Counted from the stretch's first letter, positions 3,952 to 36,816 are shown. The stretch: 64,000 nucleotides of DNA from Candidatus Woesearchaeota archaeon (GCA_041665465.1 JBAYIU010000001.1:1081733-1145732); one strand, 5' to 3'. Translations and numbers: made by a program. The notes: generated by a model not told the origin, from the sequence alone.

Positions 3952-3961
3952 GTGAAATAAA

Positions 3962-8987: not shown

Positions 8988-9029
8988 AAAAAGAAAGAAA
9001 ATTATGGGGTTTAAATGGTTTGCTGTTGT

Positions 9030-16887: not shown

Positions 16888-18183
16888 ATGGCTAAGACCA
16901 AAGAACATATCAACTTGGTTTTCATCGGACACGTTGATCACGGTAAGTCTACTACTGTTGGACGTTTACTGTATGATGCAGGTAATATCGATGAGCAAAC
17001 TATGAGAAAATTGAAAGAGAAGGCTGAACAATTAGGTAAGAAAGGGTTCGAATTCGCTTTTGTAATGGATAACTTAAAAGAAGAACAAGAGAGAGGAGTT
17101 ACTATTGATTTATCTCATAAGAGATTTGATACCGATAAGTATTACTTCACTATCATCGATGCTCCTGGACACAGAGATTTCATTAAGAACATGATTACTG
17201 GTGCTGCTCAGGCTGATTGTGCAGTTATTGTTGTTGCTGCTAACGATGGAGTTAACTCTCAGACTATTGAACATTTAAAATTGTCTAAGATTTTCGGTGT
17301 AGGACAGTTAATGGTTGCTGTTAACAAGATGGATATGCCCGGAGTAGACTTTGCTGAGAAGAGATACAAAGAAGTTGTTGAAGACGTTAAGAATCACGCT
17401 AAACAAGCCGGTTGGAACATTGAAAAAGTACGTTTCATCCCCACTGCTTCTTTGATTGGTGAAAATATCACTAAAAAAACCACTAAGATGCCTTGGTGGA
17501 CTGGCGACTGTTTATTAGAAGCTATCAATAAATTTGAAGTACCTAATAAACCGGTCAATTTACCTTTAAGATTGCCTTTACAAGATGTTTATAACATCAC
17601 TGGTATCGGTGTTGTTCCTGTAGGTAGAATTGAAACTGGAATTATGAAAGTTAACGATAAGGTTATCTTCGTTCCCGGTAGAGAAGGTAAGGGAGTACAA
17701 GGAGAAGTCAAATCTATTGAAATGCATCACGAAGCTATCCAGCAAGCTGAACCTGGAGATAATGTCGGGTTCAACGTTAGAGGAGTAGCTAAGAAAGATG
17801 TTCAGAGAGGAGACGTAGTTGGTTTAGTATCTAGTCCTCCTAGTGTCGCTACTGAATTTACTGCCCAAGTAGTTATCTTGAACCATCCTACTGTGGTTAC
17901 TGTTGGTTATACTCCCGTATTCCATATAGGTACTTCACAAGTAGCTTGTCAGTTTGTAGAGATTGTGAAAAAACTCGATCCTGCAACTGGTCAAGAAGTT
18001 ACTGAAGGTAAAGACATCTTAAGAAATGGAGATGCAGCTATCGTTAAGATTCGACCGGTTCAACCTGTCGTTATCGAGAAGAACGCTGAAATTCCTCAGA
18101 TGTCTAGATTTGCTATACGTGATTCCGGTTTAACCGTCGCTGCTGGAATGTGTATAGATATGGTCAAGAAACCTATGTTGTAA
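16888..18183 (+). CDS. tuf: Elongation factor 1-alpha (aEF-1alpha)
   Basis: [14 protein letters not shown] and NKMD motifs. 431 aa. GGAGG Shine-Dalgarno upstream. Confidence 0.95.
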
Positions 18184-18736: not shown

Positions 18737-20575
18737 ATGGGATTAGCTGATAGATTCATAGAAGCAAGAGAAGCTTTTGAACTGGCTTATGATAGAGTTG
18801 CTAATGACCATTCTCGCTCATTACTGGATCCTCTGGTTCTTCCAGAGGTAGAACAATACTTGCCTGTACTTGCCGAAGCGGTTCGTGAAGCAAGTCTTCT
18901 TTCTCCACTTGAGATAGGAGAACTCATTTTTCATCCTAAAAAGGCTCAACGAGGTATGGGTACTGCAGAATGTCTTCTATTTGATTATCAGCTTGCTGCT
19001 GAAGGGTTTGGTTTGGCCAATGTAGAAAGAACATTGGGAGAATTTGCAGAATTAAGTGACTTCATGAGTTTAGTTATTGCGAAATTATCTACTTCTCCTG
19101 ATCTTCCTGCTGTTGAGAGAATATCTCTTATTGGTGGTTCAAAAAGAATAAAGTTGGTTCAAGGGACATCTGAAGTCAAAGGTGACAGTGCTGCTCAGAC
19201 CTATCTTGCTCGGGAAAGAGAAGCTCACTGTTTAGTCTTTCAAGGAGATGCCCCTCAACAAGTTCACAATGAAGTTACTGATTTACTTCTAGCTAGATTT
19301 GGTCCTCATAGTCCTTACTTTAAGAAAACAGGTAGATACATCCGGCCATATCATGTTGATGCTAAATCTGGTTTGGCAACCATTGCTCAACTTGATTCTG
19401 TTCCTGAGGTTCATAATATTGGTAATTTATCTGTAGCCCCTGCCTACTTTAGGGTAGGGGGAATGTTTATTGATTATCAAGATCTAGATGTGGTGATTGG
19501 TGAGCTTAAATCCTTTGGGTATAGTGTTAGTCCAGGTAGTTCTAATTCCTCTCTTACTGATCGTTTATTATCCGCAGGAGTACCTGAACCATTGGTTGAA
19601 CCATTAATCCAAAGTGTTAATGCCCAGATCGATCGACTAGATCATATCGTTACGGATACTATGACTGGGATTATGGGTCATGGTTGCGTAGGAAGATACG
19701 TTTCTTCAGAAGGAACGTATTGGTTTAAGATAGATACTAATTATTCTGCAGCGTATAAGTCTTCTCAGATTCCTGCGTTAATTCATGCTCGAGCAGAAGC
19801 AGGTAGTGAATTAGCCCAAGCCCTAGCTAGAAGAATTCCTTGCACTTTATCTGGTCTTCCGATTCAAGTAGGAGATTATCATGTTACTTTTTCTCGAGAT
19901 GCGAACGAAATGATGGTTCAGCCAGATTTAGTAGAAAGATCTATCCTGTCTGTAGAATTAGGGAGAGGAATAGGTCCCGAGATGCTTCAAAGGATTTATA
20001 CTACTGCATTATATCATGAAGTTTCTACTGATCTTAGTAAGGATAATCCTGATCCTTTGTTAAGCTCGGAAATTTTCCCCACCAATTTAGATCGGGAACA
20101 ATTGATAGCTCGTTTTAATGGAAGATTTACAGATTTTTCTTCTTTATTCAACAGAACTATTGATGGGGGCTATGAAGAAGGACGTGCTAGGTTATTAGAA
20201 CATCAACTTTCTGGGTCAATTCAAGGTATCTATGACAACAAACCTGAGAACTATGTGGGGGCTTGTTGTGTTGATCTTGGAATATCCAAACAAGGGGACG
20301 AAGTAGATGATTTAGCTAGATTGATGTTAGGAAAGGAAGAATTTGTGAAAAATCCCATTCTCTTAAATAATTATGTTGGTGCTTATATCAGAATTCGTCA
20401 AGGAATTCAGAAGAAATATCGTGGAGAAGCAACGTATCATCCTAGTGAAGAATTGTCTGAATTAGTTAGTCTACAATTACAATATGGTACTTGGAGAATG
20501 ATGGGATGGAGTGTAGTAAGGGGAGATGAAGAAGGATTAACTAAATATTTGCGATGTGCTCAAGAGTTTGTCTGA
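18737..20575 (+). CDS. Large hypothetical protein (612 aa)
   Basis: Long ORF with consistent coding potential and elevated GC (about 42%). No motif recognised. Confidence 0.5.
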   Translation: MGLADRFIEAREAFELAYDRVANDHSRSLLDPLVLPEVEQYLPVLAEAVREASLLSPLEIGELIFHPKKAQRGMGTAECLLFDYQLAAEGFGLANVERTLGEFAELSDFMSLVIAKLSTSPDLPAVERISLIGGSKRIKLVQGTSEVKGDSAAQTYLAREREAHCLVFQGDAPQQVHNEVTDLLLARFGPHSPYFKKTGRYIRPYHVDAKSGLATIAQLDSVPEVHNIGNLSVAPAYFRVGGMFIDYQDLDVVIGELKSFGYSVSPGSSNSSLTDRLLSAGVPEPLVEPLIQSVNAQIDRLDHIVTDTMTGIMGHGCVGRYVSSEGTYWFKIDTNYSAAYKSSQIPALIHARAEAGSELAQALARRIPCTLSGLPIQVGDYHVTFSRDANEMMVQPDLVERSILSVELGRGIGPEMLQRIYTTALYHEVSTDLSKDNPDPLLSSEIFPTNLDREQLIARFNGRFTDFSSLFNRTIDGGYEEGRARLLEHQLSGSIQGIYDNKPENYVGACCVDLGISKQGDEVDDLARLMLGKEEFVKNPILLNNYVGAYIRIRQGIQKKYRGEATYHPSEELSELVSLQLQYGTWRMMGWSVVRGDEEGLTKYLRCAQEFV

Positions 20576-21489
20576 GAAAAGTTTATTGCAAATAATGGCA
20601 CAGTAGTAAGATAAATCGTTCGAGCTAACTCTCCACAATAATATAAAATTAGGTTTTCTTCCCCTTTTGATTTTTTAAGAAGAAGAAATATTTCCCCATA
20701 AAGGAGATGTTTATTATTGTCATTTACTTGTTCTATTATCTTAAGATCTTTCTTTGAAAAACCTTCATATAGTAGTTCAAAACTGGCTTTAATCTCGGTA
20801 AATAATTTCAAGGTGCTGTTAGAAAAAACTGGCTTATTCTTTCCTTGCATTACTTCGTAAAGATGCAATAAACTATGTTGTGTTAGCAACAATCGTGTGT
20901 ATAATTCCCAGTAGGAGTTTATTCTCTCTTCTACAAATCTTCTTTTGGAGATATTTCTATTGCAAAAGTTAGAGTAACGATCAACATTTTTACTATTTTG
21001 TATTAAATGAGACAAATGAGAAAAATCCTTGTTCTTAAAATCGTTTTCTAATTGCTCAAAAGAGTTCTTAATAATTAGAAAGATTCGGCGCAGAAGTACT
21101 TCTTGCTTCTCCTCACTTGGTTCAGTTACGTTTTCCAAGATTAAGTAATTGGGGCTTTCTTCCACAATTTCAAACCCTAACAATCTTGCTTCTACTGTGT
21201 TCTTAATCAAATTTTTCTGTTTAGGGATGTTAAAAAATACTTTTATTCGGTCAAAGCCAGTACGATAAAGGACATTCAGATTACTGCGAATAATCTGTTC
21301 ACTTTCAGTAGATATCTTTAGGACAGAACTCTTCTTCTCACCTTTTGATTCGGTGCTGATGATAACTTTATTTTCTATTTCTTCTATATCTACTTCTTTT
21401 CCTGCCTTCAATCCGTTGAGTTTGGTCCATTTAGCGGGAAGAGTTAAAGTTAAAGCGTTATCCCCCTGCTTGATCAGTTTTCTACGCAT
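20560..21489 (-). CDS. AbrB-N/PhoU-like regulator (paralog 2 of 4)
   Basis: MRRKLIKQGDNALTLTLPAKWTKLNGLKAGKEVDIE at the N-terminus. Aligns with the other three paralogs. Confidence 0.65.
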   Translation of the reverse strand: MRRKLIKQGDNALTLTLPAKWTKLNGLKAGKEVDIEEIENKVIISTESKGEKKSSVLKISTESEQIIRSNLNVLYRTGFDRIKVFFNIPKQKNLIKNTVEARLLGFEIVEESPNYLILENVTEPSEEKQEVLLRRIFLIIKNSFEQLENDFKNKDFSHLSHLIQNSKNVDRYSNFCNRNISKRRFVEERINSYWELYTRLLLTQHSLLHLYEVMQGKNKPVFSNSTLKLFTEIKASFELLYEGFSKKDLKIIEQVNDNNKHLLYGEIFLLLKKSKGEENLILYYCGELARTIYLTTVPLFAINFSQTNS

Positions 21490-21528
21490 ATGTATTGAAT
21501 GTGGGGGTTTATTTTTAAACTTTTCTTA

Positions 21529-21575
21529 AACTTATATTACTTATATTTAAAATATAAGTTAAATATAAGTAGTTA
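21529..21575. promoter_or_regulatory. Composite palindromic operator-like element in a divergent promoter region
   Basis: aACTTATATTACTTATATTTaaAATATAAGTtAAATATAAGTag. Two direct copies of ACTTATATT face two copies of the reverse complement AATATAAGT. Confidence 0.45.
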
Positions 21576-21625
21576 CCGGTGTTGTCACTTATTAATAACA
21601 ATGAAGAAGATGAGGTAAAACAAAA

Positions 21626-21892
21626 ATGGTCACGGAAAGTTTAGATTTTGAACGAAATATTGGGTCTTTAGAGAGAGCCCTAAAATTACTCACAAAAGCG
21701 TACCTCTTAAGTGGAGCGATTGTAAGAGAAGAACAAGATCAAAGTAGAATTATTGCCTATACCAATGCGGCTTTATATTCTCTTGGTGTTGAACCCCGGG
21801 TTGATTTTTCAGAATGTCCTGATAGGTATACACCAAAAAATATTGCCGAACTAAGAAAGAAGACTCGGGAAGCATACCCTCACTTCTGCTAA
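21626..21892 (+). CDS. Hypothetical protein, first gene of a five-gene operon
   Basis: 88-aa ORF. Genes 21626-24918 are tightly spaced or overlapping (stop/start overlaps at 22653/22656, 23147/23150, 24103/24106). Confidence 0.35.
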   Translation: MVTESLDFERNIGSLERALKLLTKAYLLSGAIVREEQDQSRIIAYTNAALYSLGVEPRVDFSECPDRYTPKNIAELRKKTREAYPHFC

Positions 21893-21894
21893 AT

Positions 21895-22656
21895 ATGTTG
21901 AAAAATGGGGTTAATCTTGTCTGGAGAATAAAAATGAATCATCAATCAAATTTAGGATTAACTGCTTTGGTTGCTGGAGCTCTGGCTTTAATGAGTGCTT
22001 GTAATTCTGGAGTATCTAAAGAGGAAGAAAATAGATTATTACAACTAGAGAGACAAAAGCAAGTAGAAATACAAGAAGAGATGGCTAAACCTCTCTGTCC
22101 GGAAATACCTCTTTACTTAGCAAGAGAAAGCTCTCGATATGGGGCATTAGCAAAAGAATTTATCTTGACGTGTAATGATGTTGGTGGCCAGGGGGATTAT
22201 GGTCTTTTTGTTGAAGTAAAGAAAAATCTTTACAAAAATATGGAACAACAGAGGAAAGCTACCATTAAAGATTTGGTCTCTAAAGGAGTTATGTCTGAGA
22301 ATGGTACACTAAAATGTAGGTTTCCACAACCCGATTTGAATCAGTTAAGATCTGCCTATGATTCACTTTTTGAGAAAGAAGTAACTCCTATTTGGAGATG
22401 TCATACCAATAAAGGAAATATTCCAATGTGTGATTACATTGGATGTGCTGTTTTTACTGACAAGTATGGGGAAGAAAACTTTCAAAGAGGGAAATTTTGT
22501 AGTCCCACTGAAGCTGTAAGGGTGGAAAAAGATCAAATTGAAAGATATCTAATGCAAGAGAAAGGGGCTTGTCAACATGTGGATTATAATTATTTTGATC
22601 CGATCAGTGGGCAATGGTTCAATACTAAAACTGGAGTGATGAGGGACAAAAAATGA
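21895..22656 (+). CDS. Putative lipoprotein, Cys-rich
   Basis: Signal peptide ending in the lipobox-like LMSAC (likely start at the Met of MNHQSNLG at 21934). Several conserved Cys. Confidence 0.45.
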   Translation: MLKNGVNLVWRIKMNHQSNLGLTALVAGALALMSACNSGVSKEEENRLLQLERQKQVEIQEEMAKPLCPEIPLYLARESSRYGALAKEFILTCNDVGGQGDYGLFVEVKKNLYKNMEQQRKATIKDLVSKGVMSENGTLKCRFPQPDLNQLRSAYDSLFEKEVTPIWRCHTNKGNIPMCDYIGCAVFTDKYGEENFQRGKFCSPTEAVRVEKDQIERYLMQEKGACQHVDYNYFDPISGQWFNTKTGVMRDKK

Positions 22657-23150
22657 AACTATCTTATCTTATCTTAGCTTTGGGTTTAGCTACAGCTGGT
22701 GCTTGTACCTCTGAACAAGACAGAGCTAATCAAACTCGTTATAAAGCAGAAATTATTGCTTTATATGATCAACTAGAAGAGAAAGTTGCTAAAGCTCAGA
22801 ATCAATTAGCAATTGGCTCTATCGATCCTCTAAACAATGAGTATAAAGTGATTGAATGTTACAGAGTTTGGAGAGATTATCACTTTTCTACTAAGGAGGC
22901 CGGAGAACACAATTGGAAATATTGTTTATCTATCACTGAAGATGGAAAATATGATTGGGGGGCTTGTATTGATGACGCGGTGAATGAAATCTCTGAATCT
23001 AATCTTGATCCAAATCTATTGAAGGTTGGGGTGAAAAGTTCCTTTGAGAAACATTGTCGAGAACAAATAACCCTAGCTGATGAATTCATCTATTGTGCTG
23101 ATCATCTTAAACCTGAACCAGGTGTTGAAATTGAGGTAAATGAAATATGA
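22653..23150 (+). CDS. Putative lipoprotein
   Basis: MKLSYLILALGLATAGAC, a signal peptide with lipobox. Confidence 0.5.
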   Translation: MKLSYLILALGLATAGACTSEQDRANQTRYKAEIIALYDQLEEKVAKAQNQLAIGSIDPLNNEYKVIECYRVWRDYHFSTKEAGEHNWKYCLSITEDGKYDWGACIDDAVNEISESNLDPNLLKVGVKSSFEKHCREQITLADEFIYCADHLKPEPGVEIEVNEI

Positions 23151-24103
23151 TAAATGATAATTTAGAGATAATTGTAGAAAGAAGAGAAATTCGTCCAGAA
23201 AGAGATATTGTTGTCAAACAACTTGGGGTAGATTTCATAGATCAAGGAATCAATCGCGGATTTTTCGGATGGATAAGAGCTCGGATTGATCACTATTTAG
23301 ATTCAGAGAGTCGAACCTTAGCAGTTAGGAAGGAAGAATTCTTCCGAGATTATGCTACTACCTACACTACTTTATTTGGAAATGGGAATGATTGGGATTC
23401 TCTTCGAAGTATGGATCAAACTAAGATTGATGATACTCCTCAAGCAAGTTCCTTTTCTGGTTTAAGTCAGAAACATCGTGATGCGATTATTATTGATAAG
23501 ATAGTTAACGTCCTGGAAACCACCGAAGATCAGTTTGTGGCTGGATTATTCCGTGGATATTTGAGTCATGACTTAATGTGTTCAGATGCAGTTCATCAAT
23601 TGATTATGGGGTACGAACCGGGACAAGAATTCTCTTGGAGATCTAAACCTCGTCGTGAGATTACTCTTCATCAAGAAGGGGAATATTCCGAAAAGGTCAT
23701 CTGCAGATCAGAAGAAACGAAACGATTAACTCGAGATTATCCTATTGAAGATACTTTCGGAGAAGCTAGAGAGTATTTTGCTACTTGTAACAGAGCCATG
23801 GAACTCGCTCGACATTATCTCCGTTCTCCTGCTCAATGTACTGAAGCGGAAATGGGCGTTCTTGCTCCTTTCGCGGCTATCGCTGCTCGTGATGGAGAAT
23901 GGCGCGGTATTGAGTTAGAATGGAATGGCACAATTCTCGATTTCCAACAACATTTAGATGGAAATATGTTGGGAAGATTAGGTGAGGGAATCAAGAGATT
24001 ACAAGAAGCAAATATCGTTGACCTTCAGTATCATCAGGACAAAGTATATCTCTTGCCCACTGAAGGATTCATCCAATTGACTAGAGAGAGGTTGGGAAGA
24101 TAA
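23147..24103 (+). CDS. Hypothetical protein (318 aa)
   Basis: GC-rich (about 48-50%) ORF with no recognised motif. Translationally coupled on both sides. Confidence 0.5.
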   Translation: MINDNLEIIVERREIRPERDIVVKQLGVDFIDQGINRGFFGWIRARIDHYLDSESRTLAVRKEEFFRDYATTYTTLFGNGNDWDSLRSMDQTKIDDTPQASSFSGLSQKHRDAIIIDKIVNVLETTEDQFVAGLFRGYLSHDLMCSDAVHQLIMGYEPGQEFSWRSKPRREITLHQEGEYSEKVICRSEETKRLTRDYPIEDTFGEAREYFATCNRAMELARHYLRSPAQCTEAEMGVLAPFAAIAARDGEWRGIELEWNGTILDFQQHLDGNMLGRLGEGIKRLQEANIVDLQYHQDKVYLLPTEGFIQLTRERLGR

Positions 24104-24105
24104 GA

Positions 24106-24918
24106 ATGAAAAATCCAATAAATCTACTAAGGGGTTTAACTCAATCAGAAGAATTAAAATGGCAGGAAGCTTATGGTTTAATCTTAGCACGGGCGGAGGA
24201 GAAGACCAACCTTAAAGCATTAAGAACTGGAATTTATCGAGATCTTCAAGCACAAAAAATTCCTCCCAATGTCACAATGTCAACAAGAAGACATCCGGTA
24301 GACTATCTCTTACAGGCGCGTCTAGTCTTAGGCTCATGGCCGGATGCATTTTTATCCTATCTTTCTCCTAGTACTTGGACCTCTAGTGGTGGATCTTTTA
24401 AACTGGCAGAAGAGAGACTGGGTTACGATTTAGTAAACATTCTGCTGGAAAAAGAGAAAAAGCAAGGTCAATCCTCTATATTAGAAGTGGGTGCGGGATA
24501 TGCCGGATTTAAATCACAACCTGCTCAAGGGATGTGTAAATTATCTCACGTAGCGAATGACAAAATGGGCAATACCATTAATGCTTATTTCACTAACCTT
24601 TCTAGATGGCATGAACAACTCCCGAATGGAGTAGAAGAATTTCCCGGTGTTACTGCTAGTACCTTAGATTGTCTAAGCGGAAGAATATCTCCCTTAGATA
24701 TTATTTATTCTCAATGGGGAGCTTTTTATGATCCTCTAATTGATCGATTCATTCCTAGTGCGAGTGGTTTATTGAAATCAGATGGTTTGTTAATTTTTAA
24801 TCATTCTACTTTCTATGAGGGAGAGATCTTAAATGAAGCCAAAAAAAATCTTCTTTCCTTAGAAAAGAAAGTAGAGCTTCATCCTGGGAATAATATCTAT
24901 GCTTTTCGTAAAGCCTAA
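24106..24918 (+). CDS. Putative class I SAM-dependent methyltransferase
   Basis: ILEVGAGYAGF resembles motif I (E/D-x-G-x-G-x-G) in a Rossmann-like context. Weak evidence. Confidence 0.4.
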   Translation: MKNPINLLRGLTQSEELKWQEAYGLILARAEEKTNLKALRTGIYRDLQAQKIPPNVTMSTRRHPVDYLLQARLVLGSWPDAFLSYLSPSTWTSSGGSFKLAEERLGYDLVNILLEKEKKQGQSSILEVGAGYAGFKSQPAQGMCKLSHVANDKMGNTINAYFTNLSRWHEQLPNGVEEFPGVTASTLDCLSGRISPLDIIYSQWGAFYDPLIDRFIPSASGLLKSDGLLIFNHSTFYEGEILNEAKKNLLSLEKKVELHPGNNIYAFRKA

Positions 24919-24939: not shown

Positions 24940-25860
24940 TTATTTTTCTTCTTCTAGCATCTTTAATTGTAATAAAGAATGATTAAACATGGCAATAGTT
25001 CTAGCCACTTCAAATAGATAACACATCGCTAGTGGATTTAGCCCTTGTAATTTGTTTATTCGTTGATTAGTTATCTTTTCCATCTCATTTGCAAGGATGC
25101 CCGTTCTTTCTAATTCTGCAGGATTGTTTGCTTTAAAATAAGCTAGATACATCTGATCAAACATTTTGGTAAATTCTTCCATAAACGGAAGAATCTTCTG
25201 TTTTTGGTTTTTGGGGAGGTTAATGGTTGCTTGAACTAAACTAAACAGTTCTCTTTGGATTACGTAACAATCGCGATACTCCTGCCATTTAAATGGACTA
25301 TTCTTTAAGGGGTAATTAGAATAATTACTTCTAAGAATTGAATCACACTGAACCATACTCTTATTCAGGTTTGCAATACTTTTGAGGTTTTTAGAATCTT
25401 TTTTAAGCAGTTCTATCACTTCCAAAAATGTTTCTTTAACCAGATGAAAAGATCTTTTTTCTACAGTATTTATCTCGCTAGGGAAAGGGATTAAATTAGC
25501 TAGAATACAACAATTATTCTTTGTTTCTCTGATCTCATACCCATAAACATAATTATCTACCACTTCTCGAATATTTTTGAGGAATTGATCCTTTTCTTTC
25601 TCTTTAAAGAACAAGGTAAAACGGTCGCAACCCAAACGAATCAGAGAAAACATAATTCCTCGGATATTTCCAATATCTGAGTATTCTAGAGTTACACTGC
25701 GTTCTTTAGCTGGTCTTTTGTAATCTTCTGCTTGAATAATCAGCTGATTTTGTTCTTCTTCAATCTTAACTTCTTTACTCCCCAGCTTATTGCGGTCTAC
25801 CCAGTATTTAGGTACTGTCAGCAAATAAGAACCTTTATTGAAGACTAATTTTCTATGCAT
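24940..25860 (-). CDS. AbrB-N/PhoU-like regulator (paralog 3 of 4)
   Basis: MHRKLVFNKGSYLLTVPKYWVDRNKLGSKEVKIEEE at the N-terminus. Same architecture as the other paralogs. Confidence 0.65.
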   Translation of the reverse strand: MHRKLVFNKGSYLLTVPKYWVDRNKLGSKEVKIEEEQNQLIIQAEDYKRPAKERSVTLEYSDIGNIRGIMFSLIRLGCDRFTLFFKEKEKDQFLKNIREVVDNYVYGYEIRETKNNCCILANLIPFPSEINTVEKRSFHLVKETFLEVIELLKKDSKNLKSIANLNKSMVQCDSILRSNYSNYPLKNSPFKWQEYRDCYVIQRELFSLVQATINLPKNQKQKILPFMEEFTKMFDQMYLAYFKANNPAELERTGILANEMEKITNQRINKLQGLNPLAMCYLFEVARTIAMFNHSLLQLKMLEEEK

Positions 25861-27685: not shown

Positions 27686-27849
27686 TTAAAGAATCGTTGG
27701 GGGTATAAGGTAATTTCCTTTATCTTACTTTATTTTCTCTCTGGAGGGAGTTATCCCTAGGGAAACTAGGGGGGAGTTTAAAATAAACTTCTCTCTATTT
27801 TAGCTTAAATAGTTGGTTTTGGTGTTTTATAAATGTGGAGTGATCAATA

Positions 27850-28443
27850 ATGTCAATTAGAAAATATTTTGTGTCGATTGCCGCTGCGACGGTATTATTG
27901 GGGGGGTTAGCTTGCACTAAAATTGGATCTACTGCGGATACTTTGCTAGGGATGGCTTTGGATAATCCTAACTATCTTAGAATGGAACAGAGAGATACGG
28001 GAGTTGCTAACACTGCTTTCAAGGATAAAACTACCGGAAATTTAGTTTACACTTTGTTAAGAGATGGGTTTGAGGGAACAGTAACAGAATATTTTGATCT
28101 TAATCATAATGGGCAAGTTGATGGTGAAGATTATTTTGCTCGAGTTAAGGTACTTAGGGGCATAGATTGCGAAGGAAGTGATTCTGGTTGTCTAGACGAA
28201 GAATGTACTTTATGCTCTATGGTTGACTGTTTTACTCATTATCCTCAAACCGTCTCAACTAAGCCGCTTAAGGCTGTAACTACTGCTGCTGATCCTCTCA
28301 CTTTGTATCCTGCAAGCCAAGTTGACTTAATCTCTAGATATAAGGTTCAATCTCCTCGAGAAATTGCTCTGTGTGTGATTAATGGTGCAAGAGAATTAAA
28401 CCAAACTTATTCTGTAGTGGTTGATCCAAATCTTTTACCTTAG
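27850..28443 (+). CDS. Putative lipoprotein with an EF-hand-like Ca-binding loop
   Basis: Signal peptide with the lipobox LGGLAC. DLNHNGQVDGED matches the DxNxNGxxDxxE Ca-binding loop. Multiple Cys. Confidence 0.5.
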   Translation: MSIRKYFVSIAAATVLLGGLACTKIGSTADTLLGMALDNPNYLRMEQRDTGVANTAFKDKTTGNLVYTLLRDGFEGTVTEYFDLNHNGQVDGEDYFARVKVLRGIDCEGSDSGCLDEECTLCSMVDCFTHYPQTVSTKPLKAVTTAADPLTLYPASQVDLISRYKVQSPREIALCVINGARELNQTYSVVVDPNLLP

Positions 28444-28451
28444 GAGGAAAA

Positions 28452-29531
28452 ATGAAACGAATCACTTTAGCTAGTTTATTGTTGGGAGCTGCTCTTAGTT
28501 TGGGCGGATGTCATGAAGATACTCCGCAAGAGCAGATTGCAGATAAATTATCTCGTTCTCCAAAAAGTTTTCTGTGTGCGGTAGAGGATCACGTTAATTC
28601 TACTGCTCCTGCATTGTCCGTGGCTTCAGTATTGCAAACCGTTCCGGTGCTTAGTCCCGTAGTTAAGAATGATCTTCCCAAGACTATTCCTTTTACTGCT
28701 AATAGTGCTCCTAGAAAACATCGCGCTAACCAAGTTAATGGTAACATATTAACTGTTTACTTTACTACTGATCATTCTAGCTTTAACTCAAACGATACTG
28801 CTGATTTGGAAACCTATCTTCAAAGTTTACCTAATGGAACCCATTTGTTGGTAGAAGGTTATGCTGATCGAAGAGGTACTGATGAACATAACGCCTTGCT
28901 TAGTCAGCAAAGAGCTCAAGCTGTATCTGATTACGCTAAGAGATTTAATCCTACTTTGGAAACTGAACTTTATTCTTTTGGTGAGGGTCATCCGGCAGTG
29001 GAAGGTAAAGGGTTCAAGACTTATCAAGCTAATCGTCGAGTTAGAATTATCCCTCAAAAAAGTGAAGGAGTGATCACTACTGGACTAAGTACTTTAAAAC
29101 CATCTGATTATTATCTATTAGACCGAACCGGCTCAATGAAGGATATTCAATGGAATAGAGTTTCTAAGTGGAATGAAGTTCAATCTTATCAATTTCCAAA
29201 AGGGGCTAGTCTTTACACTTTTACTACTAATAATGTAACTAAAGGATGCACTGGTGAAGATTTAAATCAACTTACTCCTGATGGAGAGACTCCTTTGTTT
29301 GTGTCTTTATACTCTTTGTTAGATGAGATGAAAGAAGGTAGATCTGTAACTGTGCTAACTGATGGGATTAACAATGTAGGAGATGTTAGTGATAAGGACA
29401 TTATAGAAAGAGCTAGAGCAAAAAAGATTACTCTTTCCTTTCTAGCTCTAGTCCCTTGTGATAAGGACAGATTAACTTATCTGGCGAAAGAAACCGGCGG
29501 AGATACTTACTTGCCGATTGAGAAAGAATAA
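28452..29531 (+). CDS. Lipoprotein with an OmpA-like (peptidoglycan-associated) domain and a von Willebrand factor A domain
   Basis: Lipobox LSLGGC. VEGYADRRGTDEHNALLSQQRAQAV is the OmpA-C signature. YYLLDRTGSM (MIDAS DxSGS) and VLTDGINN mark a vWA domain. Confidence 0.65.
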   Translation: MKRITLASLLLGAALSLGGCHEDTPQEQIADKLSRSPKSFLCAVEDHVNSTAPALSVASVLQTVPVLSPVVKNDLPKTIPFTANSAPRKHRANQVNGNILTVYFTTDHSSFNSNDTADLETYLQSLPNGTHLLVEGYADRRGTDEHNALLSQQRAQAVSDYAKRFNPTLETELYSFGEGHPAVEGKGFKTYQANRRVRIIPQKSEGVITTGLSTLKPSDYYLLDRTGSMKDIQWNRVSKWNEVQSYQFPKGASLYTFTTNNVTKGCTGEDLNQLTPDGETPLFVSLYSLLDEMKEGRSVTVLTDGINNVGDVSDKDIIERARAKKITLSFLALVPCDKDRLTYLAKETGGDTYLPIEKE

Positions 29532-29544
29532 TGGAGAATGAAAA

Positions 29545-29925
29545 ATGATTGGATACATTAAACAAACTGTTTTGGCTTTAACGGCCTTTGGATTTATGAT
29601 TGGATCTGCTTATGCTGAGCAAAGAGATTTTTCTCCTCAGAAACAGTTAGCTAGAGTAGAAGCTCAGATTAAAACCGGAAAAGGAAACTTAGAAGAATTA
29701 AGAGAATTAAGATCTTATTTTAGAGATAGTGCTTCTTGTGATGCTCTGCAACAGAAATACTGGAAGAACTGTCAAGAACCAGAGCAGAGAGCTGCTTCTG
29801 AGAAACTTTGCGCTAGCTTAGATGCAGAAATTGATTCATTATGGGAATCTTGGTTAGAAACTCCTGATTTTAATCAACGATTAGATAATTATGGGTTTTG
29901 CGGACAGGATTATGTTGGTGACTAG
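29545..29925 (+). CDS. Secreted hypothetical protein
   Basis: N-terminal signal peptide, with a likely AYA-EQ cleavage site. 126 aa. Confidence 0.45.
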   Translation: MIGYIKQTVLALTAFGFMIGSAYAEQRDFSPQKQLARVEAQIKTGKGNLEELRELRSYFRDSASCDALQQKYWKNCQEPEQRAASEKLCASLDAEIDSLWESWLETPDFNQRLDNYGFCGQDYVGD

Positions 29926-29942
29926 TTTTTAAAAATTAAATC

Positions 29943-31376
29943 ATGACTATTAAAGAAAAGTTTGAAGCGATAAGGGATTATCGCAGCAGTAAAAAAGTCC
30001 AGATTGATCGTTTCTTAGATCCAGCTTTGTTTCTCACTTTTACTAATGCTGCTAGTTTGTATGGGTTAGATACGGCTTTAAACTGGGTGGCAGAACATTC
30101 AGATAAGCATGAAGGATTGGCTATGCTGGGAACTTATGCTGTTCTTGGTACAGGAATATATGAATTAAATAAGCATGTTCTTATCCCGGTAGCGAAGAGA
30201 ATAAAGCAATATCATGAGATCCGTGCTTTAAGAGGAAAAGATGCTACTGTTCTTAGCTTTGGTAAATCTGGAGCTTCACTAGCAGCATTAGCTACTTTGT
30301 ACGTTGTAGCTGGATTTAATCTTACCCTTAATGATTTCTACTGGGATGGAGATAGAGTAATTGATGCTTTTGCTCGTCATAAAAAAGCAGAACAAACCAT
30401 TGAAGAGGCTCAAGCTATTGATGTTACTCCTTTATCCTTAGAAGAAAGAGTTACTCTTGTGAATGAAACCAATATTTTAGAGAATAAAACATCTCTTGCT
30501 TCCTCTTCTGAGATTAAAGTAGAAAGTCCAACCGAGATTGGTAATTCTAACAAATATTCTACTAAAGGACGTTATTTAAGAACTCATCGCTGGGATAAAA
30601 TAAACCGAGCGGTAGAACAAAAATATGGGATTGAAGAAGGTCTTCTCTCCGGATTACAGATGAGAGAGAGTTATGGTAATCCGTTAGAACTTAATTCTGG
30701 AGATGATGGTGGAGCAGGATTGATGATGTTCCAACCCGGAACGGCCAAAGTATATGGTCTTAAAGTTTATGATGATGCTGGAGCTACGGGAAGAGATCGT
30801 AATCATGGAAGAAAACTTATCAAGTTAGTTAAAGATAATAATTATGATTATGAAGCTCTTGCTTCTATTGATGAAAGATTTGATGTACTTAAGAGTGCAG
30901 ATGCAGCAGGCAGATATCTTAGAGAGTTGTATGATAAATATGGTTCATGGGACAGCGCTTTATCTGCTTATAATCGAGGAACTCCGGCAACTAATCCTAA
31001 ATCTACTCGCCATGTTAAAACTACTCGAGAATATCAGCGATATTATCTTGAACATAATTCTGCAGGGGGAGAAAAGGTTGATGAAACCGTTTTGACTCGT
31101 CTTCGGCAAGATAGATTACCGGAATATCGATTCGTTAGAACAAATGAATTGGGACAAGCGGTTTATATGTACCGTGTTGAAGCTGGAGATAATGCCACAG
31201 TTATCGCTGAAACCTTTAATCGTTGGGATGGGAAACATGGAAGCAGATATCAAGACGTTGATTATACTCATATCGTTAATAGAGATAGAAAATATGTGGG
31301 ACACAGATTACATCCTGAGCAGTATGTTTACGTTTTAGCTGAACCTCTAGCTAAATCTAAACTTAAGAAGAAATAG
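29943..31376 (+). CDS. Membrane-anchored lytic transglycosylase (SLT domain) with a C-terminal LysM-like module
   Basis: Two N-terminal TM segments. QMRESYGNP...GGAGLMMFQPGTA...AYNRG is the SLT family signature with the catalytic Glu. The C-terminus YRVEAGDNATVIAETFN is LysM-like. Confidence 0.65.
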   Translation: MTIKEKFEAIRDYRSSKKVQIDRFLDPALFLTFTNAASLYGLDTALNWVAEHSDKHEGLAMLGTYAVLGTGIYELNKHVLIPVAKRIKQYHEIRALRGKDATVLSFGKSGASLAALATLYVVAGFNLTLNDFYWDGDRVIDAFARHKKAEQTIEEAQAIDVTPLSLEERVTLVNETNILENKTSLASSSEIKVESPTEIGNSNKYSTKGRYLRTHRWDKINRAVEQKYGIEEGLLSGLQMRESYGNPLELNSGDDGGAGLMMFQPGTAKVYGLKVYDDAGATGRDRNHGRKLIKLVKDNNYDYEALASIDERFDVLKSADAAGRYLRELYDKYGSWDSALSAYNRGTPATNPKSTRHVKTTREYQRYYLEHNSAGGEKVDETVLTRLRQDRLPEYRFVRTNELGQAVYMYRVEAGDNATVIAETFNRWDGKHGSRYQDVDYTHIVNRDRKYVGHRLHPEQYVYVLAEPLAKSKLKKK

Positions 31377-32610
31377 TTATTTTCTTTACTTTTTCTTTCA
31401 GATATTTATCCTTAAGATGGTGAGTTAGGTTATCTTTTAGTTTAGGACGTTCTACGTTGATCTTTGCATAAATTTTCCCCTTCTCTTCAAATACTTGTTT
31501 GTGTTCTTTCTTGAAATGAGTCACGTGTTCTTTTAATGCCAAAGGTGGTCCAACTCTTATTTCGAAACTGGGAAGCTCATTTCTCTCTAAAATGAAATAA
31601 AAAAAGGAGTTATTTTTTTTATTCCATTCCCATCCAGATTTTTTAACCTTAAACTTAATTAACTTCTGTTCTATGAATTCAAATGCTTTCAGTAACTGTG
31701 CTCCAACAATATCTATTTTCCCGTTTAAGGGTTGAACTTCTAAATAAACTAAGTGTGTTTTTGATCGTTTAGTTTCTTTTTTCAACTCTTCTATATTTAA
31801 GTTTTCTTTCTGGAAGAATTTAGAAGAAGGATGAGCAAGATATTCTTTAGCTAACCTCTTAAATTTACTTATCGTTTTATATCCTAAAGCAGCAGCAGCA
31901 TTACGGTTCTTATCTGTCGGATCTATCAAGATGATTGGTGATTGTTGTTTTGAAGAGTTTAAATGAAATAATACGTCCTTCTTGGGGTAGTGATTCTCTG
32001 GGTCGATTATCTCCTTGTCTTTCCATTTTAAACTTGCTTTTAATAATTTATTGAATCCTTTATAGTAGGCAATGAGTATCTCTAACCCGTACCCACTGAA
32101 TCCCCCAATGTACGATTCTGCTCCATAAATGCTGTTAGTCTTACAGAATTGTTTAGCTAAACGAACATCATCTTTTAAGGTTTTAGTATGCGCATTAACC
32201 CATCCTGAATGTAAATGAGATAAGTCTGTGATGTTTTTAGCTTGTTCTGGCTTGCTTACGTTTAAGCTGGGAACAACTTCAAACTCTATTCCCTTAAAAT
32301 TTAACCTAAAATAATCTCTGCTGCCGTGCAAGCGTTCAATTTTATCCTTAGGGAAAGCTTTCTTAAGATAAGTTTGTAACAGTTCTGAAAGTTGGTCCGA
32401 CTTTTCTGCAAAAGGAGAATAATCAAATTGAACAAATATATCTACATCATAATTTCCTGATAACCAAGTGTCTTTAGCTCCGCTTCCTCCCACTACTGCA
32501 CGAGCTTTTTTTAAGTGGGGATTAAGTAGTTTAAGAAATAGGGCAGTTACTTCTAAGAATCTCTTTCTTTCTTCTTTACTGGGTCGAATTTTATCAATAA
32601 TTTCTTGCAT
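31363..32610 (-). CDS. cca: tRNA nucleotidyltransferase (archaeal class I CCA-adding enzyme)
   Basis: GGSGAKDTWLSGNYDVDIFV nucleotidyltransferase motif. 415 aa. Confidence 0.8.
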   Translation of the reverse strand: MQEIIDKIRPSKEERKRFLEVTALFLKLLNPHLKKARAVVGGSGAKDTWLSGNYDVDIFVQFDYSPFAEKSDQLSELLQTYLKKAFPKDKIERLHGSRDYFRLNFKGIEFEVVPSLNVSKPEQAKNITDLSHLHSGWVNAHTKTLKDDVRLAKQFCKTNSIYGAESYIGGFSGYGLEILIAYYKGFNKLLKASLKWKDKEIIDPENHYPKKDVLFHLNSSKQQSPIILIDPTDKNRNAAAALGYKTISKFKRLAKEYLAHPSSKFFQKENLNIEELKKETKRSKTHLVYLEVQPLNGKIDIVGAQLLKAFEFIEQKLIKFKVKKSGWEWNKKNNSFFYFILERNELPSFEIRVGPPLALKEHVTHFKKEHKQVFEEKGKIYAKINVERPKLKDNLTHHLKDKYLKEKVKKITISS

Positions 32611-33795: not shown

Positions 33796-34230
33796 ATGTT
33801 TAAAACGTTATCTCTGAAAATGAAGCCTTATTCTTGGAAGTTTTATTTTGGAATAGTGTTAATTATCCTGAGTATGGTCATCGGAGGAGTGACAAAAATA
33901 ATGGTCTTCTTTTATCTCGAAGATCCATTTTGGTTTTGGTTTAATATTATTGTTTATGCTCTTTCTTGGCCAATGTTAGGTATCGGGATATGGTGGGTAG
34001 GTAAAGAATATGCTGATAGACTTAGGAAATATGCTAGTCTCAAATTTTATGAACAATCTTTAATGAAAGGAACAAAAAAAGCTTATCAGTTAACTAAAGA
34101 AGGAACGCAACATTTTAAGGAGAAAGGTAAACAATTTAAGTCTCATGCTCAGGAAAGAACTCGAAATCTGAGTAATAACCTTAAAGGGAAGATCCATAAT
34201 ATTAAAAGGCCGTTTAGGAAGAAGATTTAG
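33796..34230 (+). CDS. Hypothetical membrane protein
   Basis: Two TM helices plus a basic C-terminal tail. Confidence 0.4.
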   Translation: MFKTLSLKMKPYSWKFYFGIVLIILSMVIGGVTKIMVFFYLEDPFWFWFNIIVYALSWPMLGIGIWWVGKEYADRLRKYASLKFYEQSLMKGTKKAYQLTKEGTQHFKEKGKQFKSHAQERTRNLSNNLKGKIHNIKRPFRKKI

Positions 34231-34846
34231 TCCTGTGGTTCTTAACATGTCGATAGATGAAATAACCTCCGATGAGTATGATTATTACGGCTACGGGTAT
34301 AGAGATGTATTCTGAATAATTTCTCACTTCATTCCAATGTTCTCCCAGTTTAAATCCAAGGTAAGTTAAGAAAGTGTTCCAAAGAGTCCCTCCAATCAAG
34401 GTGTAGATGAAAAATTTCTTGAGATCCATCTTACCAATTCCGGCAGGAATAGAGATCAGATGTCTAACTACTGGAATAAAACGGCTGATAAAGATGGTCT
34501 TATCTCCTTTCTTAGCGAACCATTGTTCAGTCTTCTGAAGATCCTGCTGGTCTAGGAACAGATACTTTCCGTATCTGATTAGGAAGGCTTTACCTCCATA
34601 TTTACCTATGAAGTAAGATAATAATGAACCAATCATGGTTCCCAAGGAACTGAACAGAATTACTGCCCACCAGCTAAAAGTTCCTTTAGCAATCAAGAAT
34701 CCAGCGAAAGGCATCACTAGTTCTGAAGGTACAGGAAAGATCATACTTTCCATGGCCATGAATAATAGAACTCCACCATAGCCAAGAGTAGAGATAGCTT
34801 GAACTGCTAATTGGCCGATCCAGGAAAGTATTTCGGTGATAATCAT
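34214..34846 (-). CDS. DedA-family membrane protein
   Basis: ESMIFPVPSE and RFIPVVRHLISIPAG motifs. Confidence 0.75.
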   Translation of the reverse strand: MIITEILSWIGQLAVQAISTLGYGGVLLFMAMESMIFPVPSELVMPFAGFLIAKGTFSWWAVILFSSLGTMIGSLLSYFIGKYGGKAFLIRYGKYLFLDQQDLQKTEQWFAKKGDKTIFISRFIPVVRHLISIPAGIGKMDLKKFFIYTLIGGTLWNTFLTYLGFKLGEHWNEVRNYSEYISIPVAVIIILIGGYFIYRHVKNHRTKSSS

Positions 34847-34947: not shown

Positions 34948-36816
34948 ATGGGAATTAAGTCGGCTAAAAGCTTGGATCGGGTGTTGCATCGAGAGATCAC
35001 TTGGGTAATGAGAGAAACCAAGGAAGTTTCCTCCCTAGAAGAAGATATTTCTCATCTTTTAACCATTTTTAAGATTCTTCAAGACCAGAAATTAAGAGTA
35101 GTTAAACGAAGCGTCTATAACGCTCTGATGAATCGGTCTAAAAAGAAAGTGAAACATGAAGAAAACAGGGTATCTTTAGTGGAAAGGCGGATTCACCGTT
35201 TTCGAGAAAGGTTAGATCAGCAAATTAATAAGATAGAAGTGATATTTCGAGAAGAGAACAAGACTGATGAAATTGCCCAATTAGAGAAGATAAAAACACA
35301 GATTGATGTGGATGAAGGTTTATTTTTATCTTTAGTGGGGTGGCCGAATGGGAAATTGCTTAAAGAAGTTGAAAAATCTCCTCCTGATTGGGGAAACGTT
35401 TCATCTATTCTTAAACAAGGAGAACGATGCTTAAACGGTCTTCTTGCCAGTTTAGAAAAGTTAAAACCTTTAAAATTCTCTATGGCTGGATTGATGGCGC
35501 AACGTTATGGGGTTCATTTATCAGCTAAAGAAAGAATGAGATTAGAATATAATCCTGGAGATAATTCTTATTCAGTTAAAGTGTTTAATCAAGCAGAAGA
35601 TTATTATGTTCATTTGGAAAAACAGATCCGTTCTGCTCAGTATCAAGTCCTGATTGAAGTGTATATCTTCTGGCCAGATGAAGTGGGAAAATACATTGCT
35701 AAGGCTCTCATAGATAAAGCTAAAGAATTCTCCGAATATAATCGTAGAATAAATGCAAACGTATCTAATTCTAAGAAAGTGGTTTTAATGTTTGATGGGT
35801 TTGGAAGTATGAAACTGTTCTATAAAGGAAGTAAAATCCTGGAAGAGATGAGAAAAGCCGGAGTAGAGATTCGCATTTTTAATCCTCCCAGAAACACTTT
35901 CTTCAAATATAATGCTTTCTCAGTGTTACGTCATCCTCTAATTTCGATGTTTGGGAGAAATCATCGTAAGGTATGCATTATCGATGAAAAAATGGCTTAT
36001 CTGGGAGGGATAAATTTTGGAGATGAAGATCGTTTACAAAGAGATACTCATCTTTGTGTAGTAGGATCACCTGTTCCGGAGTTGGTTCAATCTTATCTTA
36101 ACATATTATCTTTATGTCAAGACTATGAAGAAAACTATTTATCTAAAATCAGTCAAGAACGTAAAGAAAAGACAAAAGAATGGATATCGGGGTCTAGACT
36201 TGCAGTTCACAAACCATCCCAAAGAAGAGGGTTTAAAATATTAGCTAATGCTCCTTCTTTTAGAGAGCACGCCATCAGAGACGAATATCTCAAGTTTATC
36301 CGTGGTGCAGAAAGAAGTATTTATCTTACTTGTCCTTATTTTTCTCCAGGGAGAAGATTTATCCGAGAGTTGGGGAAAGCAGTAGAAAGAGGTGTTGAGG
36401 TTAAGATAATCTTTCCCCTACGCACCGATCATAGCTCTGCTGATGCTATTTCTAGAAGTTATTTCAAGAAACTTTTGGAAAAAGGAGTTCAGATATTTTT
36501 ATACAATAAACCCGGAATCATGTTTATACATGCTAAAACTCTGGTTGTCGATGGGAAATATGGGACGGTTGGTTCTTCTAATTTGGATTATGTTAGTTTG
36601 TCCATGAATTGTGAGATTAACTTCTTCTTTGCTAATATTTCTTTAGCCCAGGAACTTGAGAATCAATTTAAAGATGATTTGCGTTACTGTAAAGAAGTTT
36701 CTTTAACTAAACATTTAGAAGAAATAGAGAAGGAAGGAATATTACAAAGGGGAACAACCAGAGCGATTGCGTCCATGAATAGTTTAATTGCTCCTCGACA
36801 GGCAGAGTATCAATAA
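34948..36816 (+). CDS. Phospholipase D-family protein / cardiolipin-synthase-like, with a long coiled-coil N-terminal extension
   Basis: Two HKD motifs (HRKVCIIDEKMAYLGGINF and HAKTLVVDGKYGTVGSSNLD). 622 aa. Confidence 0.75.
   Translation: MGIKSAKSLDRVLHREITWVMRETKEVSSLEEDISHLLTIFKILQDQKLRVVKRSVYNALMNRSKKKVKHEENRVSLVERRIHRFRERLDQQINKIEVIFREENKTDEIAQLEKIKTQIDVDEGLFLSLVGWPNGKLLKEVEKSPPDWGNVSSILKQGERCLNGLLASLEKLKPLKFSMAGLMAQRYGVHLSAKERMRLEYNPGDNSYSVKVFNQAEDYYVHLEKQIRSAQYQVLIEVYIFWPDEVGKYIAKALIDKAKEFSEYNRRINANVSNSKKVVLMFDGFGSMKLFYKGSKILEEMRKAGVEIRIFNPPRNTFFKYNAFSVLRHPLISMFGRNHRKVCIIDEKMAYLGGINFGDEDRLQRDTHLCVVGSPVPELVQSYLNILSLCQDYEENYLSKISQERKEKTKEWISGSRLAVHKPSQRRGFKILANAPSFREHAIRDEYLKFIRGAERSIYLTCPYFSPGRRFIRELGKAVERGVEVKIIFPLRTDHSSADAISRSYFKKLLEKGVQIFLYNKPGIMFIHAKTLVVDGKYGTVGSSNLDYVSLSMNCEINFFFANISLAQELENQFKDDLRYCKEVSLTKHLEEIEKEGILQRGTTRAIASMNSLIAPRQAEYQ

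Follow-up and report, generated by a model that had tools for sequence, protein, structure and literature searches.

A 64,000-nucleotide stretch of DNA from a Candidatus Woesearchaeota archaeon (GCA_041665465.1 JBAYIU010000001.1:1081733-1145732), which we call the window and analysed at its full length, carries a native, operon-like cluster of four genes for predicted surface proteins, g1 to g4, at positions 27850 to 31376. We propose that this cluster lets the archaeon bind and cleave bacterial peptidoglycan on contact, outside its own cell, a function to which we assign a probability of about 0.6, and for which we infer the substrate, the dependence on contact and the biological role (episymbiosis, predation or scavenging). 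The proposal is built on g4, by domain, motifs and fold a GH23/SLT lytic transglycosylase with predicted enzymatic activity, and on g2, a predicted lipoprotein in which a Pal-like OmpA-C domain is fused to a von Willebrand factor A (vWA) domain. An initial annotation of the sequence had described four consecutive plus-strand genes here, and all four open reading frames (ORFs) are present:

27850..28443, + strand: g1, 197 aa, predicted lipoprotein with lipobox Cys22 and an EF-hand-like loop
28452..29531, + strand: g2, 359 aa, with lipobox Cys20, a disordered linker, a Pal-like OmpA-C domain and a vWA domain with a metal-ion-dependent adhesion site (MIDAS)
29545..29925, + strand: g3, 126 aa, predicted secreted, signal peptide ending in AYA, followed by E, and 4 conserved Cys
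29943..31376, + strand: g4, 477 aa, predicted SLT (GH23) lytic transglycosylase with a membrane anchor and a divergent LysM at its C-terminus

The spacers g1-g2, g2-g3 and g3-g4 measure 8, 13 and 17 nt, respectively, and the genes are presumably co-transcribed.

A predicted membrane-anchored lytic transglycosylase

The Pfam SLT domain (PF01464) matches residues 222–352 of g4 with E=1e-14 (54.5 bits against a gathering cut-off of 21.3), and the same domain is matched in all 18 g4 homologs. Invariant in the 18-member alignment are E242-S243 ('RES', with the catalytic Glu), G256-G-A-G-L260, G266-T267 and A342-Y-N344-x-G346, and the GLMQ-type motif (G256-L260...Q264) and the A342-Y-N-x-G346 motif are invariant or nearly so across the family. 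A comparison of the family profile with solved structures returned as its best match 8rhe, an SLT plus LysM protein (E=1e-6), whose 'IES' Glu aligns with E242, and goose-type lysozymes ranked after it. The AlphaFold (AF2) model of g4 has a mean predicted local distance difference test score (pLDDT) of 74, rising to 86–96 in the catalytic core, and Foldseek relates it to MltC, MltE, MltF, Slt, g-type lysozymes and a GH23 chitinase with probability ~1, the E-values being 7e-3 or weaker with the full-length query. The SLT catalytic signature reported in the initial annotation is thus borne out by a Pfam score above cut-off and by an aligned catalytic Glu. Around the catalytic domain, we distinguish the following parts of the protein:

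29988..30338, + strand: N-terminal membrane anchor, residues 16–132, a helical hairpin plus a strong transmembrane (TM) segment 109–132, predicted from Kyte-Doolittle hydropathy, charge and AF2
30339..30542, + strand: acidic, disordered, poorly conserved linker, residues 133–200
30543..31067, + strand: SLT/GH23 catalytic domain, residues ~201–375, catalytic Glu242
31125..31346, + strand: divergent LysM-like domain, residues ~395–468

One strongly hydrophobic segment (109–132) is preceded by a weakly hydrophobic helical hairpin (25–50, 58–76), in a region where AF2 places helices at residues 16–52, 57–96 and 103–123. The protein therefore remains a membrane-anchored one, as initially annotated, but the count of two TM helices was imprecise. 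Seven Lys/Arg residues lie in the N-terminus and another seven in the loop 77–107, while the segment after the TM helix is acidic, a charge pattern that by the positive-inside rule puts the SLT-LysM part outside. This agrees with homolog P0012, in which a Tat-signal-like match falls at the helix equivalent to the g4 anchor, and we predict that the SLT-LysM part is extracellular. As g4 has no Cys anywhere, it has no lipobox anchor and would be held by TM helices instead. The linker (15 D/E against 7 K/R over residues 133–200) varies in length among homologs, and its pLDDT drops below 50 over residues 145–151 and 174–195.

At the C-terminus, LysM (PF01476) gives no Pfam match in g4 itself, even at E≤1. 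Residues 259–313 of homolog P0024, which align to g4 ~409–463, match the whole LysM model at 30.9 bits (cut-off 20.9); homolog P0005 shows a weak LysM match (E=0.031) at the same C-terminal position; and residues 396–466 of the g4 model form a β-α-α-β unit at pLDDT 75–90 (strands 406–411 and 461–466, helix 418–431). Because of the P0024 score, the P0005 match and this predicted unit, we accept the g4 C-terminus as a divergent LysM, in keeping with its earlier description as 'LysM-like'.

A Pal-like domain fused to a vWA domain

Two domains follow the lipid anchor and linker of g2:

28743..29060, + strand: OmpA-C/Pal-like peptidoglycan-binding domain, residues ~98–203
29094..29519, + strand: vWA domain with MIDAS, residues ~215–356

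Both Pfam and structure-based profiles agree with the OmpA C-terminal peptidoglycan-binding signature that had been annotated here: OmpA (PF00691) matches g2 at 8e-9 (36.2 bits against a cut-off of 27.2), and the g2 family profile matches solved Pal structures at 1.7e-14 (PDB 2hqs). The NCBIfam Pal model TIGR02802 also matches at 7.5e-14, but its 51.7 bits fall below the equivalog cut-off of 125.35, and because of this score g2 is classed by profile as Pal-like, not Pal. Within the OmpA-C domain, D139 is conserved in 87/92 relatives, and N147 and R154 in 92/92 each, and the NxxLSxxRA motif is almost invariant in the same set. D139 and R154, 15 residues apart, are what we take to be the pair contacting diaminopimelic acid (DAP), equivalent to D271/R286 of A. 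baumannii OmpA.

The vWA half is more divergent by profile, with VWA_3 matched in Pfam only at E=0.042 (14.3 bits against a cut-off of 27). Its MIDAS residues are conserved (D224 in 91 of the 92 relatives, S/T226 in 88, S228 in 86, T280 in 83 and D304 in 75), and a precomputed weak PF00092 match exists for the relative P0100. The top Foldseek matches of the g2 model are vWA domains (TFIIH p44/p34, NorD, CMG2/TEM8 and CLCA1), although the model is of low confidence, with pLDDT 56 overall and 65–87 in the vWA half. The MIDAS motif proposed in the initial annotation accordingly holds at the level of residues conserved across relatives, but the Pfam cut-off for vWA is not reached.

Anchoring of the cluster and its two accessory proteins

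PS51257-like lipobox patterns occur in both g1 (GGLAC22) and g2 (SLGGC20), as annotated, and in g2 the lipobox is followed by a ~80-residue low-confidence stretch before OmpA-C. Lipobox proteins are reported to be prevalent in DPANN, where the candidate archaeal lipidation enzyme AliA is also present (PMC12462473); the lipoboxes are therefore no bacterial signature, contrary to their initial reading as a bacterial-type trait.

Besides the lipobox Cys, g1 has six further Cys. It also has an EF-hand-like loop, DLNHNGQVDGEDY, at 28096..28134 on the + strand (residues 83–95), which matches PROSITE PS00018 and keeps D83, L84, N85, N87, G88, D91 and D94 invariant in 4 homologs. The suggested Ca loop is supported to that extent, but g1 has no Pfam EF-hand match at E≤1. 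A Sec-type signal peptide in g3, together with 4 conserved Cys, fits the description of the third gene product as secreted. Neither g1 nor g3 has a match in Pfam, NCBIfam or PHROG, and both families are tiny. That of g1 comprises 3 clusters among 5.8e9 proteins, adjoining g2 in loci L003 and L008 and the g3-SLT pair in L006; that of g3 is confined to the close clade and always lies directly upstream of the SLT gene (L003, L006). Taken together, g1 and g3 are lineage-restricted, Cys-rich proteins that are predicted to be secreted.

These anchors bear on a further explanation, namely that the proteins form a diffusible antibacterial weapon, a bacteriolysin released to kill competitors at a distance in the manner of haloarchaeal M23 hydrolases. 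Archaeal peptidoglycan hydrolases do kill bacteria (PMC12352652), but g4 has a strong TM anchor and no cleavable signal peptide, g1 and g2 have lipoboxes, and all are predicted to be cell-bound, which makes release very unlikely. Lytic transglycosylases alone are, moreover, poor exolysins against diderms.

OmpA-vWA relatives and their hydrolase neighbours

An exhaustive HMMER search with g2 recovered 132 cluster representatives at E≤1e-10. An earlier word-index search, which gave g2 just 3 relatives, was misleading in this respect. About 90 of the 132 are proteins of 280–400 aa with both domains in one stretch at 30–46% identity, and all of these start with a signal peptide or lipobox. Wherever a relative carries a source name, that name is a DPANN one (two Woesearchaeota, one Nanoarchaeota). 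L058, L060 and L061 have archaeal surroundings, among them genes for ATP-dependent DNA ligase, S6e, eIF2γ, ZPR1, an archaeal-type ProRS and XPD; L059 lacks marker genes and is archaeal by the Woesearchaeota label of its source metagenome-assembled genome (MAG). A 196-aa gene upstream of the L059 OmpA-vWA gene was considered as a g1 homolog and is not homologous. A metagenome scan based on a 10-sequence alignment added eight loci (the closest, at 28–41% best-segment identity) whose flanking ORFs include TFIIB, S6e, S3Ae, eIF2γ and IF-2B.

More distant members (24–30% identity, mostly marine) have bacterial or phage neighbours, including bacterial RecA, DnaB, Pol A, Clp, DnaJ, L,D-transpeptidase, phage lysozyme and amidase, and because of these neighbours we read the OmpA-vWA fusion as a bacterial architecture with a DPANN branch. 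In the marine metagenome loci L073-L141, the distant OmpA-vWA genes occur in a conserved arrangement, with DnaJ/DnaJ_C nearby in 7/14 scanned loci, and some of these contigs also encode phage-like functions in replication and lysis (DnaB, Pol A, RecA, phage lysozyme, amidase).

In archaeal contexts, a peptidoglycan hydrolase lies within ~2 kb of the OmpA-vWA gene in several lineages: SLT-LysM in the window and L003, SLT in L067, and M23 in L008, L061 and L068. The M23 peptidases adjoining OmpA-vWA are located as follows:

L008:2882-4333: M23 peptidase, in a protein that also has a SleB-like Hydrolase_2 region
L061:8908-9999: M23 peptidase
L068:3675-4814: M23 peptidase

Counted with SLT and M23 profiles only, such adjacency occurs in ~5/13 independent archaeal lineages examined, an approximate denominator that includes loci without individual proof of archaeal origin. 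Two unrelated hydrolase classes, both rare in these genomes, point to a functional link to murein rather than chance, and from the gene neighbourhoods we consider chance adjacency unlikely.

This recurrence also helps in deciding on the substrate. GH23 and LysM could instead act on chitin, on some other polymer of GlcNAc or on glycans of the archaeal envelope itself, with the OmpA-like domain binding something other than murein; in line with this, a GH23 chitinase (Ralstonia A-471) is among the g4 fold matches, LysM can bind chitin and pseudomurein (PMC12352652 citing Visweswaran 2012), and the g4 SLT domain belongs to a divergent DPANN-specific clade with a long insertion. We nevertheless regard a non-murein substrate as improbable, given that g4 retains intact the motifs that mark murein transglycosylases (ES, GLMQ-type and AYNxG), that the putative DAP-contacting Asp/Arg and NxxLSxxRA are nearly invariant in the 92 relatives of g2, and that sister loci pair the OmpA-vWA binder with an M23 endopeptidase and a SleB-like hydrolase, which are peptide/murein-specific. 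The conserved putative DAP-binding Asp/Arg in g2 argues for true murein, leaving the pseudomurein or S-layer alternative of the initial annotation unsupported.

An archaeal locus with an old enzyme gene and a young cluster

The backbone of the window is archaeal, as initially annotated, with the following markers:

4744-6942: aEF-2
16888-18183: aEF-1α
31363-32610: archaeal class-I CCA-adding enzyme, whose 3' end overlaps the 3' end of g4
39466-41355: FttA/aCPSF1

OmpA, SLT and vWA domains are typically bacterial, and one close SLT relative sits on a genuinely bacterial Prolixibacteraceae contig, observations that would suit a mis-assembled bacterial fragment, or a very recent transfer or mobile element. 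Such an origin is effectively refuted. The g4 record at NCBI is an SLT-domain protein of a Candidatus Woesearchaeota MAG, and the ENA, JGI and NCBI assemblies have identical g4 neighbours in the same order, on contigs of 1.12 and 1.56 Mb; the same cluster in three independent assemblies, on contigs of up to 1.56 Mb, means that the locus is no chimera but part of a contiguous archaeal chromosome. The four genes have a GC content of 0.37–0.39 against 0.367±0.025, with GC at third codon positions (GC3) and codon usage also genome-like, and this native composition together with the agreement of the assemblies excludes both chimera and recent import. In addition, the g4 3' end overlaps the gene for the archaeal CCA enzyme, synteny is kept in relatives, and there are no phage or transposase neighbours. 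A prophage or mobile element was considered and rejected: PHROG matches are restricted to the SLT and OmpA domains, none of the neighbours is a phage, integrase or transposase gene, and no tRNA is present.

By its distribution, the SLT-LysM gene is an old, domesticated DPANN gene, since the family is DPANN-wide and, in relatives of 41–48% identity, set among archaeal core genes. When each GTDB species was scanned through one genome, SLT relatives above 40% identity came almost only from DPANN MAGs (Woese-, Pace- and Nanoarchaeota, with some Micrarchaeia and Diapherotrites labels). The SLT family-core profile scores DPANN members at 190–300 bits and ordinary bacterial SLTs at ~40 bits over part of the model, and full-length SLT-LysM relatives (46–48% identity) stand alone among genes for S6e, eIF2γ, Spt4, RpoE, S24e and S27e.

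The cluster around this gene is, judged by its content in relatives, young and variable. Synteny with the window is kept in relatives at 77% and at 40–48% identity. L003 (75% g2 identity) has the order g1-g2-g3-g4, while L006 (77% g4 identity) lacks g2 and has g1-g3-g4. Synteny with the window also holds for L008, whose AbrB-like gene is 48% identical to that at 24940-25860 of the window; this locus has an M23 plus SleB-like hydrolase before the g1 and g2 homologs on a contig that stops before any SLT gene is visible. With g2 absent in L006 and M23 present in L008, the content points to a piecemeal assembly that took place long ago. Native composition, a DPANN-wide SLT family and a variable g2 insert together speak against a recently imported module, and the horizontally acquired module of the initial annotation is thus not upheld.

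Among the close SLT relatives with 'bacterial' labels that we checked (L014, L024, L031), only L031 is truly bacterial and L024 is undecided. L031, on the Prolixibacteraceae MAG contig JAFLKN010000024.1, is Bacteroidota and carries a DPANN-type SLT gene at 3090-4097, between genes for a β-barrel OmpA porin and a TssR-type vWA protein (neighbours 1589-2920 and 7270-9981). Its product shares 54% identity with the g4 core and reaches 246 bits, where other bacterial SLTs reach ~40 bits, and a rough neighbour-joining tree places it within the DPANN clade, making it a candidate for cross-domain transfer in either direction. The possibility that the g2 OmpA domain arrived with a DPANN-type SLT from Bacteroidota was discarded, as the L031 OmpA porin is only 24% identical and provides no link. 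In L014 (JAFCCF010000022.1, 'Candidatus Aminicenantes'), an archaeal Nre gene lies beside a full-length SLT-LysM homolog, and this contig is almost certainly archaeal and mis-binned.

Upstream of g1, the intergenic gap contains candidate expression signals:

27686..27849, + strand: 164-nt intergenic region before g1, probable promoter region of the cluster

Between a 116-aa ORF and g1, positions 27767-27797 form a 14-pair hairpin followed by a T-run, and an A/T-rich TTTATAAA box lies at 27826-27833, ~17–24 nt 5' of the g1 ATG; these could be the terminator and the promoter for the cluster. Sigma-70 and terminator scans gave results at or below shuffle expectation, with models that are uninformative for an archaeon, and Rfam and tRNA scans of the window returned no match.

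Proposed mechanism and its weight

In the mechanism that we favour, g4 would be anchored in the archaeal membrane by its N-terminal helices and would display an MltD-like unit, GH23/SLT plus one LysM-type glycan-binding domain, on a ~70-residue acidic tether, with the LysM holding the glycan and the SLT domain cutting the MurNAc-GlcNAc backbone. Lipid-anchored through its lipobox Cys and extended on a ~80-residue linker, g2 would hold a DAP-containing stem peptide non-covalently through its Pal-like OmpA-C domain, and its vWA/MIDAS would contact a protein in a metal-dependent manner, the ligand being located on the bacterium or else being g1/g3. The disulfide-rich Ca-loop lipoprotein g1 and the small secreted 4-Cys protein g3 may act as clade-specific accessories. 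In this way, the cluster proteins would dock the archaeon on exposed murein and open it locally, and that murein could belong to a bacterial partner, to prey or to wall debris. Tethering of all components favours a contact function; shielding of living diderm murein by the outer membrane favours debris or monoderm targets.

The same substrate would be used, with only the biology differing, if the archaeon were a scavenger that captures and degrades free peptidoglycan or dead sacculi and, as an auxotroph with a small genome, gains amino sugars and peptides with no contact to a living bacterium. DPANN have been described as recyclers of cellular compounds (PMC9723730), the OmpA-vWA relative in L059 lies beside glycogen and sugar genes (GH15, ROK, GDE_C), and murein under an outer membrane is hard to reach for a surface-tethered enzyme. 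Neither the cluster nor the window, however, contains uptake or catabolic genes (NagZ, AmpG, amidases, MurQ-like), and membrane tethering of binder and enzyme alike fits contact functions better than it fits foraging for polymers that diffuse, so that scavenging is in our view a minority prospect.

Several points weigh against contact-dependent murein cleavage as a whole. GH23 includes chitinases, which are found among the g4 fold matches, and LysM can bind chitin too (PMC12352652). The g2 model is poor, with its vWA domain below the Pfam cut-off, g2 is dispensable in the sister genome L006, and the 13-lineage denominator for hydrolase adjacency is approximate, as noted above. Around ~30 other DPANN SLT loci, none has an OmpA-vWA neighbour, which confines the SLT plus OmpA-vWA pairing to one small clade. 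In a living diderm, the outer membrane would stand between a surface-tethered enzyme and the murein, and no DPANN-bacterium pair is known to be in cultivation. Finally, the proposed function is drawn from sequence and predicted structure.

A more specific version of the proposal, which we hold only tentatively and at rather low odds, is that DPANN (Woesearchaeales/Nanoarchaeota) have a dedicated family of Pal-like OmpA-vWA surface adhesins, acquired from bacteria, which would dock the archaeal cell on the murein sacculus of a bacterial host and work together with interchangeable neighbouring SLT-LysM or M23 hydrolases. If true, this would be a molecular apparatus for archaeon-on-bacterium episymbiosis or predation, a way of life not yet demonstrated for any archaeon.

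Other features of the window

Elsewhere in the window, we noted the following genes:

18737-24918, + strand: run of genes for proteins of 612, 253, 165, 318 and 270 aa, broken by the - strand gene 20560-21489
20560-21489 (- strand), 24940-25860 (- strand) and 52515-53432 (+ strand): three paralogs of ~305 aa
32635-33387 (- strand) and 34214-34846 (- strand): two VTT/DedA-family membrane proteins
34948-36816, + strand: 622-aa two-domain PLD-like (cardiolipin-synthase-like) protein
51408-52397, - strand: 329-aa protein that joins a DnaJ J-domain to a Ser/Thr protein kinase domain
60462-62234, + strand: bacterial-type MutL (HATPase_c_3, DNA_mis_repair, MutL_C) in the archaeal backbone

Pfam finds an AbrB/MazE-type N-terminal domain in two of the three ~305-aa paralogs, with a PhoU match also in 52515-53432. 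The copy at 24940-25860 has no Pfam MazE match; its sequence similarity to the others and the annotation of its ortholog in L008 place it with them, and in relatives it is kept upstream of the cluster as a synteny anchor. The VTT/DedA genes flank the PLD-like gene, an arrangement kept in L004 and L006. In the 18737-24918 run, four scanned proteins have no Pfam or PHROG match; the run is partly kept in L003 and L006, where the last position is a radical-SAM/SPASM gene.

Relation to known systems

Reports of murein-like lytic transglycosylases in Woesearchaeota and Pacearchaeota go back to 2013–2015, and these enzymes have been read as binding or degrading bacterial walls in episymbiosis or 'vampiristic' predation (PMC8204110, PMC9723730, PMC10936187); for haloarchaea, experiments have demonstrated killing of bacteria by peptidoglycan hydrolases (PMC12352652). 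Murein-type transglycosylases of Woese- and Pacearchaeota are thus already in print, with a role in attacking bacteria or attaching to them as their interpretation (Castelle 2021, Vigneron 2022, Strock 2025). OmpA-like or vWA proteins receive no mention in these four papers (PMC8204110, PMC9723730, PMC10936187, PMC12352652), LysM receives none in the three on DPANN transglycosylases (PMC8204110, PMC10936187, PMC9723730), and a literature search combining DPANN, OmpA and peptidoglycan returned nothing relevant. The earlier suggestion that a locus coupling OmpA-vWA to SLT-LysM is undescribed therefore survives for the OmpA-vWA partner, which we did not find in these papers, but not for the transglycosylase, whose interpretation is published. 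Two modest elements appear to be new: the MltD-like architecture of a compact SLT subfamily, and a DPANN branch of OmpA-vWA lipoproteins with recurrent hydrolase neighbours.

The case for DPANN archaea living or preying on bacteria has so far been based on a single gene class, the SLT/GH23 transglycosylases, and no DPANN has been shown doing so. That case would gain considerably from a second, independent murein-specific element, which would here be the Pal-like, putatively DAP-binding domain in fusion with an adhesion-type vWA, and OmpA-vWA is conserved across dozens of DPANN lineages, repeatedly beside two classes of wall hydrolase. Its ectodomain could also act as a bait or stain for the bacterial walls that uncultivated archaea recognise. 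At the same time, the locus advises caution, as 'bacterial-looking' DPANN genes can be old, domesticated residents and not fresh imports.

Compared by description, the Woese- and Pacearchaeota transglycosylases (Castelle 2021 fam00969; Castelle 2015 AR20; Vigneron 2022 GH23) are, like g4, GH23/SLT proteins predicted to be extracellular. The fam00969-type proteins are large, up to 3000 aa, whereas g4 has 477 aa, a membrane anchor and a LysM-type C-terminus. E. coli MltD (family 1D) and 8rhe share with g4 an SLT domain with the ES motif followed by LysM, as well as membrane tethering. Unlike MltD, g4 would be anchored by TM helices and not by a lipobox, has a single divergent LysM with a ~13-residue insertion and an SLT domain with a ~45-residue insertion, and belongs to a host without murein of its own.

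On the binding side, g2 resembles the Pal/OmpA-C family in its lipobox, flexible linker and OmpA-C domain with conserved Asp/Arg, and differs from Pal in its fusion to vWA/MIDAS, the absence of a Tol system context, its archaeal host and its score below the equivalog cut-off. The marine OmpA-vWA proteins (L073-L141) have the same two-domain architecture in one stretch at 24–30% identity; their neighbours are bacterial or phage (DnaJ, RecA, DnaB, Pol A, YkuD), with no adjoining SLT or M23, whereas the archaeal branch is closer to g2 (30–46%) and often hydrolase-linked. The haloarchaeal zoocin-A-like M23 plus PG_binding_1 proteins (Strock 2025) likewise combine an archaeal murein cleaver and binder of bacterial ancestry, but those are soluble, secreted fusions of binder and enzyme from other classes, whereas here the two functions would be cell-anchored and split over neighbouring genes.

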